Below are positions 1,365-62,811 of a stretch of 64,000 nt of DNA, piece after piece. Origin of the DNA: a virus. How positions within the stretch are numbered: position 1 is the first letter of the stretch; every line of letters begins with the position of its first letter. Below the pieces are notes generated by a model. That model did no database searches, was not told the origin of the DNA, and worked only from the letters and a program-made list of their open reading frames with translations. The DNA is taken from the IMG/VR virus record IMGVR_UViG_3300030329_003597, positions 2,676 to 66,675 of that record. One strand, given 5' to 3'. Both the position numbers and the translations under genes were made by a program.

Positions 1365-1991
1365 TTATTTTGTTTCGTTGTAATAAAGTTCGTATTCTTC
1401 TTCAATTTCATCGCTATCTATATACTCTTGCAAGTATGAGTGTATCTGCCAATCGTCTTCTACTTTGAATAGCTTGGCATCGGTGTAACCACCACGTATA
1501 TCACACCCACCATGTATCTGCAAGAGTAGGTAGGTATCTCCGTCAGCGTCTTCTAACCATGCACCTTGCAACACTTGGGATAGGTCGCTATCTCCGTTGT
1601 AAGTGTTGAATTCGTACTTGCTTTCCATACCTATCAACTCAAGGAAGTCAGCACCTGATTGTGATACTCCGTAACCGATATCTCCGTCCCAATCGGGGCA
1701 GTCAGTATTGAGTTCGTTGAACTTATCGCACACGTGGTCGAGTTCAAGTTCGCTTAGGTAGTGAAATACTGAAACGTTACGCTCATACTCGGTGTGTATC
1801 TTCCCATCTTTGTCAGTCCATTCAGACTTTTCAATGGTTTGCTCTTGCTCATTATCAAAGTCTTCGATAGTCTTGGCTTGGTTTCGTTCCCAATTCCTAC
1901 CATATGCACCACCTGAATCAAGCATGTGCCTACCTGTGTTTTCCGTAAGCATAGCGTACACCAGCTTTTCCGTGTTTGTAAATTTTCTCAT
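1365..1991 (-). CDS. hypothetical acidic phage protein
   Basis: 208 aa with motif-like segments ENTGRHMLDSGGAYGRNWERN and QIHGGCDIRGGYT. Confidence 0.8.
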   Translation of the reverse strand: MRKFTNTEKLVYAMLTENTGRHMLDSGGAYGRNWERNQAKTIEDFDNEQEQTIEKSEWTDKDGKIHTEYERNVSVFHYLSELELDHVCDKFNELNTDCPDWDGDIGYGVSQSGADFLELIGMESKYEFNTYNGDSDLSQVLQGAWLEDADGDTYLLLQIHGGCDIRGGYTDAKLFKVEDDWQIHSYLQEYIDSDEIEEEYELYYNETK

Positions 1992-2564: not shown

Positions 2565-2588
2565 TTTGTTTCCGACTTTCTCGGTATT

Positions 2589-2652
2589 AAGTAGTATATG
2601 TATTATATATCTCTCATATTCTATGAGATATATAATACTATACTTCTAAAGG
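2589..2652. repeat. long AT-rich inverted repeat, copy 1
   Basis: GTATTATATATCTC (2600-2613) / GAGATATATAATAC (2625-2638), perfect 14 bp, plus an outer stem. Confidence 0.9.
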
Positions 2653-2999
2653 CTCAGCCTCTCTTCCTTACTGCGTATGTACGCTTGTTCAGGAGTTTCA
2701 CCATCTCTAATTTCTAAAGAAATCGCACATCTCGGAGATTTATAACTCGGCTCGACTTCACTCTTCAGGTACGTGGTACATATCTGAGTACGTGCTTGTC
2801 TATGCTCTAACCTTTGGTTATGGCTTAATCTCACCCTCGCTTTACGAGCAAGGTTTCTACCACTAAAATCCTCTACCACCTCTAAAGAGGTAATGTGAGC
2901 AGTCATCTCTTTGAGTAAGCGCATAGCTATACGCTTGTTTTTTGCGCTCGGTTGCTGTTTAGCTAATCGTACAGCTGAGCGTATCTCTGTGAATTTCAT
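2646..2999 (-). CDS. basic early protein, N-terminal paralog of 3197..3457
   Basis: 117 aa; SAV..A......K.IA..LLKE.TA....L.VV shared with the 3197 ORF. Confidence 0.75.
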   Translation of the reverse strand: MKFTEIRSAVRLAKQQPSAKNKRIAMRLLKEMTAHITSLEVVEDFSGRNLARKARVRLSHNQRLEHRQARTQICTTYLKSEVEPSYKSPRCAISLEIRDGETPEQAYIRSKEERLSL

Positions 3000-3010
3000 A
3001 GATGTACGTT

Positions 3011-3121
3011 TTATTGGTTTATTATTAGTGTTGCTATTATCGTAGAGATAATATATCCCATTAGGATAGAGAATGTTACAACACCTGCGACTATTAGTCC
3101 TGATTTTAATTTACTCATCAT
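3011..3121 (-). CDS. small membrane peptide, 36 aa (MMSKLKSGLIVAGVVTFSILMGYIISTIIATLIINQ)
   Basis: Hand-translated; one long hydrophobic stretch; starts 23 nt after the hammerhead cleavage site. Confidence 0.65.
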   Translation of the reverse strand: MMSKLKSGLIVAGVVTFSILMGYIISTIIATLIINQ

Positions 3122-3138
3122 AGCGTGTGAATTGAATT

Positions 3139-3196
3139 GTTACTGACTACCCCCCGAAGGGGGTAGTTTCGTCCATTCAGGACTCGTCAGAGTAAC
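3139..3196 (-). ncRNA. type I hammerhead ribozyme
   Basis: Minus strand reads GUUACU-CUGACGA-GUCC(UGAAU)GGAC-GAAA-CUACCCCC(UUCG)GGGGGUAG-UC-AGUAAC: full catalytic core, three perfect stems, GUC cleavage triplet. Confidence 0.95.
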
Positions 3197-3457
3197 TTAC
3201 TTGCTTAGCGTGGCTAAGTGCTCAAGCAGTTGCGCCTTCGTCATCTTCGATAGACCCTTGATTGGGGTTGGCTTTGACTTAGCTTTAGAAGTCTTCGACT
3301 TCTTCTTCTTAGGTACGACCACCTTTAAGGCTTCCACCTCAGCAGTCAGCTCCTTTAGGAGCTTCAAAGCGATAGCTTTCTTTTGCTTCGTGCAGTTGTA
3401 CATAGCCTTGTTTACTGCTGACTTTGTTTCAGCGATTAGGGATTTTGATTTTGCCAT
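3197..3457 (-). CDS. Lys-rich putative nucleic-acid-binding protein, first early gene
   Basis: 86 aa, very basic; C-terminal LSKMTKAQLLE resembles the first helix of Rho-N/HeH domains. Confidence 0.75.
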   Translation of the reverse strand: MAKSKSLIAETKSAVNKAMYNCTKQKKAIALKLLKELTAEVEALKVVVPKKKKSKTSKAKSKPTPIKGLSKMTKAQLLEHLATLSK

Positions 3458-3471
3458 TTGATTTGGGGTTT

Positions 3472-3540
3472 AAGTAGTGTATGTATTAAATATATCTCTC
3501 GTAAACTACGAGATATATTTAATACTACACTTCTAAGGGG
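3472..3540. repeat. long AT-rich inverted repeat, copy 2
   Basis: GTATTAAATATATCTC (3483-3498) / GAGATATATTTAATAC (3510-3525), perfect 16 bp, plus an outer stem. Confidence 0.9.
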
Positions 3541-3738
3541 GTCAGAGTGAGGTCAGGGGAGAGTAGTAGTATACTACTCTATATAGTAGGGTGGGAGTTG
3601 TCCCCGAGCCGTATAGGGCTACCTTCGGTAAACCAAAGCCAAACGCATATACACGTATCTACACCTACGCTACAACCGATTGGATTTAACTCATTGATTG
3701 ACAGTCAGTTAGAAAAAGCTGAAAAGTGTGGGCAAAAC

Positions 3739-3796
3739 TGCGTACGTTGTGCGTATGCGACTATGCAAGTGCGTTTCGGGTGCGTTTGCGTAGCGT
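3739..3796. repeat. cluster of TGCGT pentamers in the non-coding divergence region
   Basis: TGCGT at 3739, 3750, 3770, 3781 and 3787, plus variants. Confidence 0.6.
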
Positions 3797-3987
3797 CTGT
3801 ATTTACATATAATCCCCAAGCTCTATATTTCTCAAAAAAATTTTCACCAATTTTTTCTACAGGCGTGATTTTCGCCGTTTTTTCCTCTTTTGCGGCGGTT
3901 GCCGAAATCTTTACGATCAAAACTTTACATCAATAAGCCTTAAAAATCAGTTTGTTAGGAAATGGAGCTTAAAGTAAGAGTTTACTA

Positions 3988-4159: not shown

Positions 4160-4167
4160 TATATTTG
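4160..4167 (+). promoter_or_regulatory. late promoter -7 box, TATATTTG
   Basis: TAnnTTTG consensus, 4 nt before ATG 4172. Confidence 0.7.
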
Positions 4168-4171
4168 CTAT

Positions 4172-4600
4172 ATGGACGAAGAAGAAATTTTACAATATCT
4201 ATACGATAACATGTGGCTGATCGAAGGAAGGGAGATAATAAATATAGACAAACATGGCAGTAAGCATGTATTTAAGGAAGGTTTTTCTCCAAAACAACCT
4301 TTACAGCTTGAAAGGATTGATCCTTTACCTTTAAGTAAAATTGAATCCCCAGATACAAAAGACATAGATATAAGAGATATAATTAGATCAGAGAGTATAT
4401 CACTACCTAAAGGGAAAGAACCTCAGCTTATTATGAAGAAATCTAATAAAACAAGAACAGGTCAAGAGCCAGCATACTATACGTATTGGGATAAAGATAA
4501 AAAGCAGTGGAAGAGAAGGCCAGTAGAAAAAGAAGAATATGATCGTTATATGAGGGAGAATCGTATACGAAACCCTCAAGTCATCAAAACTAGCTTTTAG
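4172..4600 (+). CDS. hypothetical protein, putative virion cargo
   Basis: 142 aa; N-terminus MDEEEILQY identical to the 41373 ORF. Confidence 0.75.
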   Translation: MDEEEILQYLYDNMWLIEGREIINIDKHGSKHVFKEGFSPKQPLQLERIDPLPLSKIESPDTKDIDIRDIIRSESISLPKGKEPQLIMKKSNKTRTGQEPAYYTYWDKDKKQWKRRPVEKEEYDRYMRENRIRNPQVIKTSF

Positions 4601-4608
4601 TATCTTTG
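4601..4608 (+). promoter_or_regulatory. late promoter -7 box, TATCTTTG
   Basis: Consensus match, 4 nt before ATG 4613. Confidence 0.7.
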
Positions 4609-6951: not shown

Positions 6952-7380
6952 ATGGCAACACTAACGGTAACAATTAAAGAAGAATTAATCCTTAATGGGA
7001 AAGATGTAGGGTGTACTAATGTTGCTACTTATGGTGCTACTGAAGTTTATCACCGTATAGCAACTATAACAAATACTGAAAAAAGTATATTGTTATTTGG
7101 AGCTGCCGTAGAGGGTGGGACTATTAAAGATGCTCAACTTGATTACCTAAGGATTACAAACTTAGATTCGTCTGCTAATATAAAGCTTAGGATAAGAAAT
7201 GCTTCAGAGGAGTTTATGGTTCAGGTAGATCCTTTAGGTTCTTTCATCTTAACAGAAGATAAGTTAGATGCTGATGCTACAGGAAGTGATGAGACTATTT
7301 CATTAGCTCAAATAGACAGTATAAAAGCTGTTTCTGGAACTAGTAGTTCATTAATAGAAATATTTGCAGCGTCAGCATAA
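6952..7380 (+). CDS. putative virion structural protein, beta-rich
   Basis: 142 aa; MATLTVTIKE start and YLRITNLD motif, similar in style to the 20550-22560 family. Confidence 0.65.
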   Translation: MATLTVTIKEELILNGKDVGCTNVATYGATEVYHRIATITNTEKSILLFGAAVEGGTIKDAQLDYLRITNLDSSANIKLRIRNASEEFMVQVDPLGSFILTEDKLDADATGSDETISLAQIDSIKAVSGTSSSLIEIFAASA

Positions 7381-41372: not shown

Positions 41373-44300
41373 ATGGACGAAGAAGAAATTTTACAATACA
41401 TTCAAGATCAGCGTGACAGCGGAGTAGACGACGATAAAATCGGTATGCAGCTGCAGATGAAAGGTGTTGCTGATTTTGACACGTACTTAAAAAAAAAAGA
41501 CGATACTTCGATCTCGCCCTCTGCTTCGGAAGGGGAAGGTACGGAATCAGAGCAGATTACAAGTCAGCAAACAGGACAAGGAGCTGGTTCTTCGGTTGTA
41601 CCTGTAACTCAAGATGATCCTACTGTAAATACTATTGCTAGCGGCGAGCAAGACTCGTCTACTAATTCTATTACTGGTCAGGTAATAACTCCTTGGACAG
41701 ACACCCCTGAAAATAGAGCGAGATTAGAGATCGATCCAATGCATTATGACGGTTTTCAAAAGGGTGCATTTATAAAAACTATGGAGGTGTTAGATCCACA
41801 GTATATAACGCCAGAGATAGAGACATACTTTCATAATTTCGTTTCATCTAACGACTGGTGGTGGAATTCAGTAGGGGCTAATGTCAATGGTATAGCTGAA
41901 GAGCTTGCAAAAAATGAAGAATATCTATCTGCAAACGACATAAGCGTTCCTATGTTGGGAACACCAGTAGCAAGTCCTTATGGAGCTTATGCTCCACCTC
42001 GTAGTGAAGAGGATATAATGTTTGATAAAGTTGCTGCTGTAAAAAAACTTTTAACGCAAAATATTAATGACAGTGCTGTAGATCTTTTACAATCTAGAAT
42101 GCCTGCTGATATAAAGGAGAGCAAAGAAGCGCAGTTATATATGGAGCAATTTATGTTAGAAAATTATGGGGCGATGCTAGATCTAACTGGGGAAGGCGAA
42201 ATAGGTAATACTCCTTTTCTTCAGTTTGATGGGTGGCAACCTAGCACATATTATGGCGCTGCAGGTGGCCCAGGATTTAGGCCTAAATTTTCTGGGTATT
42301 TGGTAGATAGATATGATGCTGCAGGTATTGATTTAATAAATGGAATTTATAATTTCTTTGGTGGGGATGCGAAAACAGTAGTTGAAAATCGAGAGATTGC
42401 TGAAAAAATACGTGCTAATACGCTTCAGTTTGAAACTACTATGGTTGGCAGTTTTACAGATGGAGAGTTTTTGAGAGGGTTAAAACAAATGACAGGATTT
42501 GTAGCTGAAGCGACCCCAGTTATGTCAATATTAATACCAACTGCTACAGTTACTACAGTTGCTACTGGTGGGGTTGCTGCTCCATGGTGGGTTACGGCGG
42601 GCCTAATAGGTTTAGAAGGAGCAACATTAAGTACAACAATTGAAGCCGCTAGAACTCGTGAACACCCTATGTTTAAGAGGTATACGAAAGATGGGGTGAC
42701 TATAGGGTATTATGAAATGATGGAGGCTACTGGTGGTGATCCAGAGCTTATGGCTCAGTATGAATACAGCTTTGATGATTCAGCAAGATTAGGTCACTTA
42801 AGTACTGTCTTTGGAACTGACTTTGTTGCTTCAGGAGTTACATCATTCTTTTTCTTTAAAGCATTAAAAGGCGCTACAACTCCAAAAAATATAGGGCCTA
42901 ATATGAATAGCTGGTGGAATGCTCACCTTGCAAATATGGGTTATTCTGTACCTATTAATAGCGTAACTTCTTCTACCGCAGCTATGGTTCAATATATGAG
43001 TTTGAATCCAGATGCCACTCAAGAAGAAGTTTTTGAAGTTGGATTAGATGTAGCCTTAGGTACTGTCCCTATAACGATAGGGATAACAGGGACTGGTTCT
43101 GCTATTAATTATGCTCATACAAAAGCTACAGTAGCAAATGCTTTAGCTAGAGACGCAGTTGGAAGAAATGGTGGTAATGTTAAAATACATCAACAGCGTA
43201 AAGTGCTTTTAGAAACAATAAGAAAAAGCAAAGATCCAAATAGCGCTGAAGCAATAGCGGCTGAAAGGATGTTGGTTGATTTAGAAGAACAAAGACTCAG
43301 CACTATGACTACTGATGAAAACTTCTATTTGAATATGGATCCAGAAGATTATCATGCTATTGTGGATTTACATAGGAGTTATAATAGTAAACTTCGTCAA
43401 TTAAATCAGCTTGATGATCCTGACTCACCTATAGGTAGAGCCTTACAAAAAGAGCTAAATGAAAATATACAATTAAGGCAAAATATAGAAAAGCTTTATG
43501 AGACGGACCCTGTTGTAGATGCAGATCCTACTTCACCTAAGCCAGATATATTTCAACCTACTATCGAAGGGCCTGATGGGAAGCCAGTACCATTATCATT
43601 TACACCTGGACTATCTAAGTGGTGGTACGTTGAATTCTTTGATAAGTACGGTGATGTAAACATGCTACAAAGAAGTATTATGGAGGCTTTGGACACTGAA
43701 AACCAAGGTGCAAGACTTTCTTTAATGCAAGATTTTGAAGTGTTACAAAAGCTGTCTACCTCAAAAGCCGCTCATCAAATAGAAGAGATGGTAAATCTAA
43801 GATCTCAAGATGGTGGGCTGATAGATCAACTAAGGATTCTACAAAAAAATACACCTCAAGACCTTTATCAAAATCTACCAGAGGTATACTCTAAAGATAT
43901 TATAGGCCTTTATGATAGGTGGGCTGTTTCAAAATTTGCTCCAGAAAGAAACAAGCAAATACTTGCTGATAATAAAACGGAACTTAATGCTTTAAAAGCA
44001 AAAGAAAAGCCAACTTCTGCAGACAAGAAACGAATGGCTTTTCTTGAAGAGAAAATTGCAGAAAGAAGAGGTAGTGGTATGGCTGATGAAGAAGCTGCAG
44101 ACTTCTTAAATTCTTTACCTGAAGATTTGAAATTAGCTTTTGAAAAAGTTAGGGAGGAACACAGATCTATTCAGCAAAACACTAGAGACGCTGCTTTAGA
44201 GTATGGCTTTATAGATCAAGCTATGTACAATAAGCTTCAAGCTAACGCTGAAAACTACGTAACTCTTACTGGTGACGGCATGAAGTCTGTTGATGGTAGT

Positions 44301-46586
44301 ATATCTCTAATTGATAATGATATAGTAGCATCTATCTTCCCACAAAAGTCTCAACAAGGGGGTGTACCTGATGGTTTAAGAAAAGCTTCTGGTCGTAGCG
44401 ATGAAACAGGTAGTATATTAGGCAAGACTATAGATCAAAATACACAGATACATATAGCAGGGCAAAAGAATGTGGCTCTTAGGGGGTTGTACGAGATGCT
44501 GCTAAACAATCCAAACTCTAAACATTATTCTATATCTGACCAAGGTAACTCGTCAGCTAAAAATACAGTAATGGTTTACGTAGATGGTCAACAAAAGTTC
44601 ATCACGTTTGCTAACGAGGCATACGCAAAACCTTTTAAGACTCAAGCCCCTAGCGATAATGAAGCATACGTTAGGTGGGTTCAACCTATGCAGAGGTTAT
44701 TTAGTAATATACCAAAGATGTATACCCAATGGTCTACTTCATTCTGGGCAGGTAATAGTGCAAGAGACTTTCAAGGTTCTTTAGTAAACGCAATAAGTGC
44801 AGCAGAAAAAAAGTTTGGGTATGCTTTATATAACGCTGAAGGCAAACCTATAAATATAAAACAATTAGCAAAAGACTCTCACCTTGTAGGTAGAGGTGAA
44901 TTCTTTAAAGCTTTTAAAGCTATTGCAGCCGATGAGTTTGGCCCTGGAAATAATTATAGGGGTGCAGATAATGCGCTATATCAAGAATATAAAGCTCACG
45001 GAGGAAAAACTGGTTGGGCTTTTAGAACACCTTTAGAAGATCTTCAAAAAACATTACAAAGAGAAGTTGATTCTGGAGTAAAGGGTCAGAAAGCAACAGA
45101 GTGGATGTATAAAAATACATTTGGCCTTATTGAGTCTTTTAATAATACATTTGAAAACGCTTTTAGATTTCAAGTATATAAAGGTTTAAGAAATCAAGGT
45201 GTTGCCCCAGACTATGCCGCAGCTGTAGCAAAAGATGTAAGTATAGACTTTAATAGATCGGGTAATACTACCCCGATGTTAAGCTCTATGAAGTTCTTCT
45301 TAAACGCTAGTTTGCAAGGTGCTGACATGACTGTACAAACTAGTACTGCATTAAGACCTAAAGTAGATTTTGAGGGTAATGTAAGGAACCCTTGGCAGAG
45401 GATGACAAATTCTCAAAAAATTCTTGGAGGAGCTGTTGGGTTTACCTACATGTTAACTCAATGGAACCAAGGCGTTAGTGAAATAGATGATGATGGAGTT
45501 TCTTTTTACGACAAAATACCTGATCAAGTAAAACAAAGAAATCTTATTATTATGCATCCTGGATCTCCAACTGGGGAAAGAACTCTTATCCCTAAGTGGT
45601 ATGGATTTGGCACGTTCAATGATATGGGAATGATGATAGCTGAGGTTCAAAGCGGTGAAAGAAGCGCTAGTGATGCAGCTTGGTTTTGGGCTTCTTCTAC
45701 TGTAACAAATATGTCGCCAGTACACTTTGGAGGTGTAGCTAGCGAAGAAGATCCTACAAAAGGTGTAGATCCAGTAGATCAGCCAGGACTTGTTATCGGG
45801 GCGTTATCTCAAGTAGATCCTTTAGCTCCTATTATTGATGTTGCTACTAATGTAGATGGTTTTGGTAATCAAATAGCTGCAGAAGATAAACCTGGAGAAG
45901 CTAGATCTTCTCAGGGGTATGATTCCCCAATAGTTCTTGAACAGATCGCTCAGGTTTTAAATTCAGCCACTGGTGGTAGCGATGAGGTGAGTGGTGATAT
46001 TGACTTCAATCCTGACAAATTAAATTACTTACTTCAAAATTATCTGGGTAGTACTTATATGATGTTTGGGGATGCTGCAGAAGGAATTTTAGAATTAGCA
46101 GCTGATCAAGACAATCTAGATACGTGGCCTATAATAAAAAAGTTCTATGATGAAGACTACGAAAAATCTGCTTATGGGAATTATTATTCAGCAAAACAAG
46201 TTGTAAATACATACTTGGCTGAATTTGGTAATATAGAAGATCTTCGTGAAAATAAAGATAAGCCTTTGCCGAGTCGTGACGAAAGACTAGCCGACTATGA
46301 AGCTGTAGAGGAAGAAGCGGGGAGTGCTAAACAGAGATATGGTTATGCTATGGCTATGGATGAAATATTTACAAAAATAGATGGTGATATGCAAGAGATA
46401 ACAGAAGCTAAAAAATTATTACAAAATAAACAAGACGCTTTAGAGTATCATATGTTCAATCTTGAAGTGGCAGATGAGTGGGGGGCGCTAGAAGATAAGA
46501 TATACAAACTAGAGCTAGCTGAAATGGAATTAATGGAAAACGCATTAAAACAATATTATAAATTTTACAGAAAACCTGAAGAATAA
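41373..46586 (+). CDS. large ejection protein with LPD38-like C-terminal region
   Basis: 1737 aa; hydrophobic segment near residue 400; ENAFRF..Y, AKDVSIDFNRSG, FFLNASLQG, IPKWYG motifs. Confidence 0.75.
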   Translation: MDEEEILQYIQDQRDSGVDDDKIGMQLQMKGVADFDTYLKKKDDTSISPSASEGEGTESEQITSQQTGQGAGSSVVPVTQDDPTVNTIASGEQDSSTNSITGQVITPWTDTPENRARLEIDPMHYDGFQKGAFIKTMEVLDPQYITPEIETYFHNFVSSNDWWWNSVGANVNGIAEELAKNEEYLSANDISVPMLGTPVASPYGAYAPPRSEEDIMFDKVAAVKKLLTQNINDSAVDLLQSRMPADIKESKEAQLYMEQFMLENYGAMLDLTGEGEIGNTPFLQFDGWQPSTYYGAAGGPGFRPKFSGYLVDRYDAAGIDLINGIYNFFGGDAKTVVENREIAEKIRANTLQFETTMVGSFTDGEFLRGLKQMTGFVAEATPVMSILIPTATVTTVATGGVAAPWWVTAGLIGLEGATLSTTIEAARTREHPMFKRYTKDGVTIGYYEMMEATGGDPELMAQYEYSFDDSARLGHLSTVFGTDFVASGVTSFFFFKALKGATTPKNIGPNMNSWWNAHLANMGYSVPINSVTSSTAAMVQYMSLNPDATQEEVFEVGLDVALGTVPITIGITGTGSAINYAHTKATVANALARDAVGRNGGNVKIHQQRKVLLETIRKSKDPNSAEAIAAERMLVDLEEQRLSTMTTDENFYLNMDPEDYHAIVDLHRSYNSKLRQLNQLDDPDSPIGRALQKELNENIQLRQNIEKLYETDPVVDADPTSPKPDIFQPTIEGPDGKPVPLSFTPGLSKWWYVEFFDKYGDVNMLQRSIMEALDTENQGARLSLMQDFEVLQKLSTSKAAHQIEEMVNLRSQDGGLIDQLRILQKNTPQDLYQNLPEVYSKDIIGLYDRWAVSKFAPERNKQILADNKTELNALKAKEKPTSADKKRMAFLEEKIAERRGSGMADEEAADFLNSLPEDLKLAFEKVREEHRSIQQNTRDAALEYGFIDQAMYNKLQANAENYVTLTGDGMKSVDGSISLIDNDIVASIFPQKSQQGGVPDGLRKASGRSDETGSILGKTIDQNTQIHIAGQKNVALRGLYEMLLNNPNSKHYSISDQGNSSAKNTVMVYVDGQQKFITFANEAYAKPFKTQAPSDNEAYVRWVQPMQRLFSNIPKMYTQWSTSFWAGNSARDFQGSLVNAISAAEKKFGYALYNAEGKPINIKQLAKDSHLVGRGEFFKAFKAIAADEFGPGNNYRGADNALYQEYKAHGGKTGWAFRTPLEDLQKTLQREVDSGVKGQKATEWMYKNTFGLIESFNNTFENAFRFQVYKGLRNQGVAPDYAAAVAKDVSIDFNRSGNTTPMLSSMKFFLNASLQGADMTVQTSTALRPKVDFEGNVRNPWQRMTNSQKILGGAVGFTYMLTQWNQGVSEIDDDGVSFYDKIPDQVKQRNLIIMHPGSPTGERTLIPKWYGFGTFNDMGMMIAEVQSGERSASDAAWFWASSTVTNMSPVHFGGVASEEDPTKGVDPVDQPGLVIGALSQVDPLAPIIDVATNVDGFGNQIAAEDKPGEARSSQGYDSPIVLEQIAQVLNSATGGSDEVSGDIDFNPDKLNYLLQNYLGSTYMMFGDAAEGILELAADQDNLDTWPIIKKFYDEDYEKSAYGNYYSAKQVVNTYLAEFGNIEDLRENKDKPLPSRDERLADYEAVEEEAGSAKQRYGYAMAMDEIFTKIDGDMQEITEAKKLLQNKQDALEYHMFNLEVADEWGALEDKIYKLELAEMELMENALKQYYKFYRKPEE

Positions 46587-56072: not shown

Positions 56073-56517
56073 TATCTATAGATTTTTTTATCTCTTGTAT
56101 TGCTTGATCTACTTGTAGTCTGTTTTTAGCTAAGTAAACTTCACAATCCATTTCGTTATCCATGATGTACTTCAGAAAAAGCTTCCAACGCATAGGGAAA
56201 TCATGATGCGACGGTAAGTAACCTTTTGTTTCTATAATCCAGGTAGAATCCTTACAAACAAAATCAGGTGTGTATCGTATAGGGTGTTGAATTGAATTGG
56301 TCCTATCAGACATGTCCTTTTTTTTGTTTGTCATCTTAAAATACTTATGCTCAAACCTAAAGGATTCCACTAAAGTAAATTGTTCTTCTTCATATGAAAA
56401 ACCTATACCATGTTGACGCAGTTGATCCGCACAATACTTTTCAATTGATGACTTATACTTTCCTAGTTGTTTTTTTTTAGATTTAGAAGTTCTCTTATTC
56501 CTTTTCTTTCTCATCAA
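56065..56517 (-). CDS. T7 endonuclease I-like Holliday junction resolvase
   Basis: YKSSIE...YE...YTPDF...IIETKG. Confidence 0.8.
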   Translation of the reverse strand: MMRKKRNKRTSKSKKKQLGKYKSSIEKYCADQLRQHGIGFSYEEEQFTLVESFRFEHKYFKMTNKKKDMSDRTNSIQHPIRYTPDFVCKDSTWIIETKGYLPSHHDFPMRWKLFLKYIMDNEMDCEVYLAKNRLQVDQAIQEIKKSIDND

Positions 56518-62617: not shown

Positions 62618-62677
62618 CCTTTAGATGTAGTGTATTATATATAATTCATACTGAATTATTATATATAATACTACTAC
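62618..62677. repeat. long AT-rich inverted repeat, copy 3, inverted relative to copies 1 and 2
   Basis: GTATTATATATA.../...TATATATAATAC, inner ATAATTCA-TAC-TGAATTAT; flank TCTAAAGG on the minus strand matches the copy 1 flank. Confidence 0.8.
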
Positions 62678-62811
62678 AATTCCCAATCTTTATCTTCGTT
62701 CATGTCATTCCAGTACCCCCCAGCACAATCCTTAGAGCAAAATTGCCCTTCTTTCTCCACCCTGTATTCATCACAATAAGCGCATAGGTGTATTTCTTCT
62801 TCATTCTCCAT
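62674..62811 (-). CDS. small zinc-finger protein, 45 aa (CAYC...FCSKDC)
   Basis: Hand-translated. Confidence 0.7.
   Translation of the reverse strand: MENEEEIHLCAYCDEYRVEKEGQFCSKDCAGGYWNDMNEDKDWEL

Follow-up and report, generated by a model that had tools for sequence, protein, structure and literature searches.

What is a hammerhead-like RNA motif doing directly behind the first gene of a phage operon, and is it likely to work there as a ribozyme? The locus lies in a 66.7-kb contig of an uncultured marine phage (36.6% G+C), and coordinates are given here within the 64,000-nucleotide stretch of that record that was analysed (the window). The terminase and portal proteins of this phage share 25-48% identity with their counterparts in podophages of Flavobacterium, Cellulophaga, Tenacibaculum and Maribacter, and the 87 portal matches all belong to phages of Flavobacteriia hosts save one uncultured record. 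The host is probably a member of the Flavobacteriia. Elsewhere in the window, a 1737-aa protein (41373-46586, plus strand) has an LPD38 domain and matches only the C-terminal parts of function-unknown PHROG profiles (2,800-3,900 positions). This large protein may be associated with the virion or injected.

The gene in front of the motif encodes an 86-aa lysine-rich protein (gene 1; 3197..3457, minus strand). It is the first ORF of a tightly packed leftward block of about 20 small minus-strand ORFs, and it follows immediately on a non-coding region whose conservation extends to 10 relatives, so that its earlier description as the "first gene" is accurate. A relative with direct terminal repeats has an equal layout, and an "early" timing of this small-gene operon is plausible. 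Gene 1 has homologues in 11 viral contigs. It has no PHROG match, no Pfam match at E <= 0.01 and no PDB relative, and a Rho_N-like hint in 3 of 11 members of its family (best E = 0.043) is too weak to use. Sequencing runs that contain the locus comprise 19 DNA runs and one RNA library, in which its share is small. The RNA library yields one 153-nt contig inside gene 1 (3304-3455), with no indication of its strand or ends.

The motif itself occupies 58 nt on the minus strand (3139..3196) and is predicted to consist of a hammerhead core and three helices of 6, 4 and 9 bp. Stem I pairs GUUACU (3196-3191) with AGUAAC (3144-3139) over 6 bp. The core sequence CUGACGA (3190-3184) leads into the 4-bp stem II, GUCC/GGAC (3183-3180 with 3174-3171), which is closed by loop II, UGAAU (3179-3175). 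The GAA core segment (3170-3168) is followed by the two strands of stem III (3167-3159 with 3154-3146) with a UUCG cap (3158-3155), and C17 is at 3145; all of these parts are read on the minus strand. Every conserved core position is present in the window copy (C3, U4, G5, A6, N7, G8 and A9, with G12, A13 and A14), as are the closing pairs G10.1-C11.1 and A15.1-U16.1 and a paired 1.1-2.1, and position 17 is a base other than G. The 5' and 3' ends of the motif lie in helix I, which is open, while helices II and III are closed by loops; the element is therefore assigned to type I. Single adenines flank it on either side, A3197 as the last base of the stop codon of gene 1 and A3138 as the first base past stem I, which extends the unit to 3138..3197 (minus).

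The first-pass annotation had read this stretch as a complete hammerhead of type I, located on the coding strand, and its anatomy, its isolated fold, the chance controls and covariation in relatives all bear this out. The element does begin at the base after the gene 1 stop codon, with TAA at 3199-3197 and stem I from 3196. Stem III had been given 8 bp; the helix and its cUUCGg cap stand, and its length becomes 9 bp once A15.1-U16.1 is counted. Since hammerheads cut 3' of position 17, cleavage is predicted 3' of C3145, between 3145 and 3144, and it would leave a leader of 23 nt (3144-3122) ahead of the ATG at 3121, exactly as had been counted before.

Recognition by Rfam hammerhead models had also been put forward as a check on the element, and here the outcome is negative. 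No Rfam family matches anywhere in the window at gathering level. The best family for the element is RAGATH-1-hammerhead (RF03152), which scores 35.8 bits against a gathering threshold of 56.3 with all 77 model positions aligned (1-77), and this alignment takes in a 5-bp hairpin at 3218-3204 within gene 1. Hammerhead_3 (RF00008) reaches 20.0 bits (gathering 48.5) in a permuted and partial alignment, Hammerhead_1 (RF00163) reaches 13.2 bits (gathering 34) over model positions 7-39 only, and HH9 (RF02275) gives no match to the element. A second RF03152 candidate in the window (7241-7300, plus strand; 18.1 bits) lacks the core, lies inside an ORF and was rejected. The 3139..3196 element is thus a canonical hammerhead by its predicted anatomy, yet by score it falls outside every Rfam hammerhead family. 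Its relatives behave in the same way: none of the 28 hammerheads defined in 20 loci by our own family model (R1, below) is reported by the Rfam hammerhead families at gathering level. Among 50,697 phage records, blastn found no match for the 1.1-kb locus and only chance matches (E >= 3) for an 86-nt query with the element.

The isolated 58-nt RNA is predicted to form exactly the three-way junction in both its minimum free energy and its centroid structure (-25.4 kcal/mol). Its fold stability corresponds to z = -3.04, and 1 of 200 shuffled sequences is equally stable. A structural descriptor has one match on the two strands of the 66,675-base record; it requires paired helices together with the core, GAA, A15.1-U16.1 and any base but G at position 17. 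With the settings relaxed to minimum helix lengths of 4, 3 and 3 bp, 2 of 300 dinucleotide shuffles match this descriptor, and at the stem lengths of the window element 0 of 300 do. The descriptor replaced a sequence-only pattern (core, GAAA and UH), whose 34 nested matches against 9.0 expected are uninformative because the pattern ignores pairing.

Conservation of the element was approached from the protein as well as from the RNA. A search of viral contigs with the gene 1 protein found a hammerhead after the homologous gene in 6 of 6 loci. A gene 1 profile built from 11 proteins led to 11 loci, of which 10 could be assessed and the eleventh ends at a contig edge; a hammerhead is present within about 50 nt 3' of gene 1 in all 10, at 64.7-77.7 bits (R1). 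This co-occurrence was found via the protein alone and is independent of the motif. Most family members were supplied by pattern scans of viral and metagenome contigs with the core and stem I fixed. Chance pattern matches in which stem II or III is unpaired were rejected; they make up 6 of 19 viral stretches and 10 of 50 distinct rows overall, and they include the sole match in a genome contig (L078).

Thirty distinct sequences were aligned (A1) and used to build the family model R1, which scores the window element at 70.4 bits and the next-best place in the window at 13.4 bits. Across 45 sources, R1 gives 52 matches of at least 33.6 bits and three weak ones, which are rejected chance rows. 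Second hammerheads account for 14 of the 52 matches, although 2 of these 14 are duplicate pieces of the same contigs. Two copies occur on the same strand, 573-766 nt apart, in twelve relatives' loci (some of them pieces of one contig), and the whole 66.7-kb record has a single copy by both the descriptor and R1. Between the window and one relative (L007), identity is 73, 90 and 76% upstream of, within and downstream of the element; these values were computed with free end gaps, which inflates unrelated flanks, and only the contrast between element and flanks is meaningful. The element and its leader are the best-conserved stretch of the region.

R1 gives no match in five cultured phages of Cellulophaga, Maribacter and Tenacibaculum, nor in MW202828.1. 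The cultured Flavobacterium phage vB_FspP_elemoE_10-3D has a hammerhead-like candidate (MT497078.1, 27094-27153, minus strand; L081 1501-1560; 28.1 bits) with an intact core and a 6-bp stem I between flanking adenines, in which helix II has one clear pair and helix III contains a mismatch. The candidate is situated between minus-strand genes, and the record annotates a 35-aa plus-strand CDS (phanotate41) across it. A separate observation concerns a metagenome contig (L076), where a type-P5 twister ribozyme (1722-1779, minus strand; 50.9 bits, above its gathering threshold of 37.6) precedes a same-strand hammerhead of this family (640-703) by about 1 kb.

Base pairing is maintained by compensatory change in these relatives. 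In an alignment of 45 distinct sequences, which were partly collected by pattern, are related to each other, were fitted to the structure model and include the three rejected chance rows as the weakest (14.5-17.8 bits), standard pairs fill 98.6% of 700 cells, as against 23-54% when the partners are slid by 1-3 columns. Two-sided changes are seen in 13 of the 16 pairs, G10.1-C11.1 and A15.1-U16.1 are each unvaried (45/45), and none of 500 shuffles reaches the observed covariation score. The core columns apart from N7 are invariant in all 30 aligned members of a set whose collection pattern required the core. Second copies found by the model also carry the conserved core, and they have four other stem I sequences that were not imposed by the search pattern, so that stem I covaries. 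A natural variant of the window locus in a DNA run shows two compensated exchanges in stem II (3172/3182 and 3174/3180).

The predicted architecture of the family is largely fixed. All 44 parsed copies have a single A, a 6-bp stem I and another single A; the metagenome pattern demanded the 3' one, a requirement that did not extend to the second copies, which the model recovered. Stem II is 4 bp long in every parsed copy; loop II has 5 nt in all but two of the 44, which have 4 nt, and its consensus is U (42/42), N, A (41/42), A/G/U and U (42/42). C17 is present in 44 of 44 members, position 7 is U, C or A, and the length of stem III is free, the largest insertion being one of 60 nt in two copies. 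There is no covariation that would indicate a pseudoknot of loop II with its own 3' tail or with the 5' flank (fractions of shuffles reaching the observed value, 0.23 and 0.64), and an extension of stem I by pairing of the flanks is marginal (5.33 vs 5.07, 3.2% of shuffles). The conserved loop II and flanking adenines may instead form a non-Watson-Crick contact. Minimal hammerheads that lack a contact between stem I and loop II are described as slow at cellular Mg2+ (PMC3088659).

The element is on the strand of its flanking ORFs in all 46 copies examined. The upstream stop codon overlaps the first 1-2 bases of the element in 18 of these, lies 3-28 nt upstream in 19 and is inside the ribozyme in 9. 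Because the position of the stop varies to this extent, its abutment on the element in the window reflects tight packing and is no fixed rule. In the first copies of one subfamily (L010, L021, L029, L032, L036 and L073), the upstream ORF enters the hammerhead by 21 nt and its UAA stop is in loop II, so that stems I and II have to be unwound by every ribosome that terminates there.

What follows the element is less constant than the element itself. A putative 36-aa hydrophobic ORF (3011..3121, minus strand) lies directly 3' of the leader in the window, and none of the fetched loci contains a homologue of it. The stretch is missing from DNA relatives, with a joint from 2999 to 3135. The next gene, g2 (2646..2999, minus strand), encodes 117 aa, and its C-terminal part is homologous to a 69-81-aa gene that comes right after the hammerhead in relatives. 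The slot between hammerhead and g2 homologue holds a different 27-aa hydrophobic ORF in five relatives, and the others proceed straight to the g2 homologue. The 36-aa ORF is not conserved and the slot is variable, and the conserved partner of the element is therefore the leader and not the peptide. The same hammerhead and leader also follow three unrelated upstream genes (L003, L050 and L068) and precede differing downstream genes (L050 vs L006), and the element thus doubles as a mosaic junction.

The predicted leader (3122..3144, minus strand) extends over 23 nt from the cut site to the ATG at 3121, contains a AAUUCAAUUCA motif and would be expected to begin with a 5'-OH after cleavage. Leaders are poor in G throughout the family: each of leader positions 0-14 is a G in at most 5 of 44 sequences, and positions 15-18 reach at most 7 of 44. 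Within the window, the motif AATTCAATTCA of the leader shows no enrichment (39 matches when up to two mismatches are allowed, vs 52.8 expected), and a second exact AATTCAATTCA copy is found at 56288-56298, within coding sequence. Leader lengths, counted from the cut to the following ATG, cluster at 22-26 nt and fall within 19-41 nt in 38 of the 40 copies that have a called downstream ORF.

A second kind of RNA structure accompanies the hammerhead in this block. A long AU-rich hairpin of about 22 bp (hpA; 3476..3531, minus strand) is located in the presumed 5' UTR of gene 1, and another (hpB; ~2587..2649, minus strand) lies between g2 and the next gene and is 85% identical to hpA over 67 nt. 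The predicted fold of hpB has z = -5.7, which none of 200 shuffles reaches. A further copy at 62618-62680 has its flanking motifs in the opposite orientation. These hairpins of about 22-26 bp have CCUUAGA-like and CUUAA flanks and stand 10-40 nt before start codons in the leftward block. Three relatives (L046, L008 and L056) have a comparable hairpin of different sequence in the slot after g2 (z = -4.4 to -5.7; 0/200 shuffles each), and relatives in general have two or three long hairpins per locus with differing stem sequences. Gene 1 is bracketed by hpA and the hammerhead, and the peptide ORF and g2 are bracketed by the hammerhead and hpB. The long hairpins have no Rfam match and are possibly RNase III-type processing sites or promoter-associated structures.

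The non-coding region 5' of gene 1 contains additional conserved features. A perfect 9-bp hairpin with a 3-nt loop (3560-3580, minus strand) has arms that compensate among 10 relatives, and upstream of it a GGACAAC block (~3593-3599) is invariant among the same number. Hairpin and block could be part of a phage-specific promoter. The Bacteroidota-type -7 box has the consensus TAnnTTTG, and no such box occurs upstream of gene 1 on the minus strand. On the plus strand, TAnnTTTG boxes at 4160-4167 and 4601-4608 are separated by 4 nt from the ATGs at 4172 and 4613, respectively. Should they be Bacteroidota -7 promoter boxes, the transcripts of the two genes would be leaderless or nearly so.

The hammerhead reading is based on the motif, its fold, its non-chance occurrence, its conservation and covariation and its constant intercistronic placement. 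From these we infer, with a probability of roughly 0.8, that the element, which separates gene 1 from the following ORF on the coding strand of a leftward operon, works as a type I hammerhead and is transcribed and cleaves in vivo. During transcription of the operon, the 58-nt element would fold into the three-way junction and cut itself 3' of C3145. The upstream product would be a short gene 1 message that keeps its stop codon and begins with the long 5' hairpin, and its 3' end would consist of the compact ribozyme fold, with the 9-bp UUCG-capped helix III, and a 2',3'-cyclic phosphate. The downstream product would carry a 5'-OH and the 23-nt unstructured, G-poor leader ahead of the next start codon, with the first six bases of the leader freed on melting of the 6-bp stem I. 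In this way the stability and translation of gene 1 would no longer be coupled to those of the remaining operon. The effect of the two cleavage ends on RNA decay is host dependent; in Bacillus, a 5'-OH end reportedly marks the cleaved glmS RNA for decay. The phage record has no match to RtcB or RNA-ligase families, and its predicted genes offer no pointer to re-ligation or circularisation of the products.

Folding of longer transcripts places a condition on when such a cut could occur. In equilibrium predictions, stems I and II have probabilities of at most 0.25 in transcripts that extend downstream by 50 nt or more (at most 0.12 in all but two of twelve long-transcript settings), and helix III stays at 0.9 or above in every folding context. 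Stem I is likewise weak in long contexts in five relatives. The drop in the window arises because a heptamer within the 36-aa ORF, UCAGGAC (3095-3101, minus strand), is perfectly complementary to 3177-3183, which comprises the 5' strand of stem II and part of loop II; this pairing beats the ribozyme fold at equilibrium. The heptamer may be a product of chance, the 36-aa ORF not being conserved, or it may act as a brake on cleavage. As stems I and II are outcompeted in long contexts, cleavage would have to be co-transcriptional and fast, or be aided by ribosomes and translation.

A refinement of the main reading, which we consider unlikely, is that the cut chiefly serves translation, with a free 5' end about 20 nt before the start codon and the removal of the bulky junction promoting ribosome loading. 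It would account for the clustered distance between cut and ATG and for a G-poor leader in which no Shine-Dalgarno-like sequence precedes the window ATG and the junction is only 17 nt from the start codon. Bacteroidota rarely use Shine-Dalgarno pairing, and the portal and terminase relatives of this phage all come from phages of Flavobacteriia hosts or are uncultured. If correct, this refinement would describe a natural counterpart of synthetic ribozyme insulators. For some eukaryotic RNA viruses, the initiation of translation has been reported to require self-cleavage (PMC13725137). Other members of the family, however, have GGAG- or AAGGA-like sequences in leaders of 34-35 nt, and the lack of a Shine-Dalgarno sequence is thus no requirement for the element. 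A broader and more doubtful proposal holds that the hammerhead and the long hairpins of about 22-26 bp are interchangeable punctuation, that the units so delimited start about 20 nt before start codons and that the free 5' end switches on Shine-Dalgarno-independent translation.

The remaining alternatives assign cleavage a minor part or none. That the element marks a conserved site of cassette exchange between related phages, or is a selfish passenger, and that RNA processing is of little consequence, is quite improbable: the unrelated upstream genes and differing downstream genes around the same element and leader speak for it, as does the insertion or deletion in DNA relatives that begins just past the element (the 2999 to 3135 joint), but a mere recombination site would keep sequence and not compensatory pairing, nor the invariant catalytic positions seen in 45 sequences. 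It is more improbable still that the window copy is inactive or structure-only and that the helix III hairpin alone matters, as a 3' stabiliser or pause site. Helix III does persist in every folding context in which stems I and II give way, and no tertiary contact emerged from the shuffle comparison of loop II with the flanks; selection on a hairpin alone, however, would maintain neither the invariant core and junction-closing pairs nor the covariation of the weak stems I and II, and the hairpin has no following U run and is not flagged as a terminator on either strand. We give almost no weight to membership in the RF03152 variant family, which has an extra upstream hairpin and, in the structure line of the model, a helix II of one base pair. 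RF03152 gives the best Rfam match, and its full length is aligned, including the 3218-3204 hairpin, but its score is more than 20 bits below gathering, helix II is a regular covarying 4-bp stem, and the RAGATH-1-like upstream hairpin is not conserved across the family. The name RAGATH-1 does not occur in the main text of PMC5737381, although its supplements may describe the family. The evidence is accordingly best explained by a functional type I hammerhead.

In phage T7, RNase III processing hairpins between early genes leave structured 3' ends on the upstream messages. The transcript described here would similarly be punctuated by RNA structure, with long hairpins in its intercistronic slots. 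Unlike a T7 RNase III site, the predicted hammerhead cut needs no host enzyme, and it would leave 5'-OH and 2',3'-cyclic phosphate ends. The Rfam models RF00163, RF00008, RF02275 and RF03152 represent the same ribozyme class and core as the element, and RF00163 also has the type I topology.

The closest parallel is with the hammerheads between phage and prophage genes, often clustered, that were described by Perreault et al. in 2011 (PMC3088659), who propose that long phage transcripts are processed into single-gene or operon-length mRNAs. The element shares with those phage hammerheads a canonical core, a three-way junction and a position on the coding strand between small phage genes, and those of its relatives in which two copies flank one or two genes resemble them further (PMC3088659). 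Unlike the clustered examples, the window has a single copy, after the first gene. A pseudoknot between stem I and loop II, predicted in PMC3088659 for about 40% of hammerheads, is not detectable here, and the window subfamily also differs from the hammerheads of that study in its fixed A/6-bp stem I/A unit, 4-bp stem II and U-N-A-R-U loop. The role proposed here would match the transcript-processing role suggested in print for phage hammerheads (PMC3088659, PMC6765202), and a 2019 review calls hammerhead function in bacteria and phages largely elusive (PMC6765202).

A hammerhead between phage genes is an arrangement known since 2011, and the window copy is a further clean example of it. What appears to be new is a well-supported type I subfamily that scores below the Rfam thresholds, is strictly associated, within one phage clade, with the gene that opens the operon and is accompanied by long hairpins. 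Standard Rfam annotation at gathering thresholds misses these canonical phage hammerheads, as the loci of the relatives illustrate. The MT497078.1 candidate, an imperfect and putative copy in a cultured Flavobacterium phage, could allow bench tests. The subfamily offers a compact test case for hammerhead function, with one ribozyme in a fixed place after the first gene that is conserved in every assessable relative, with fixed helix lengths and a short G-poor leader, and with a second, non-ribozyme structure in the neighbouring slots.
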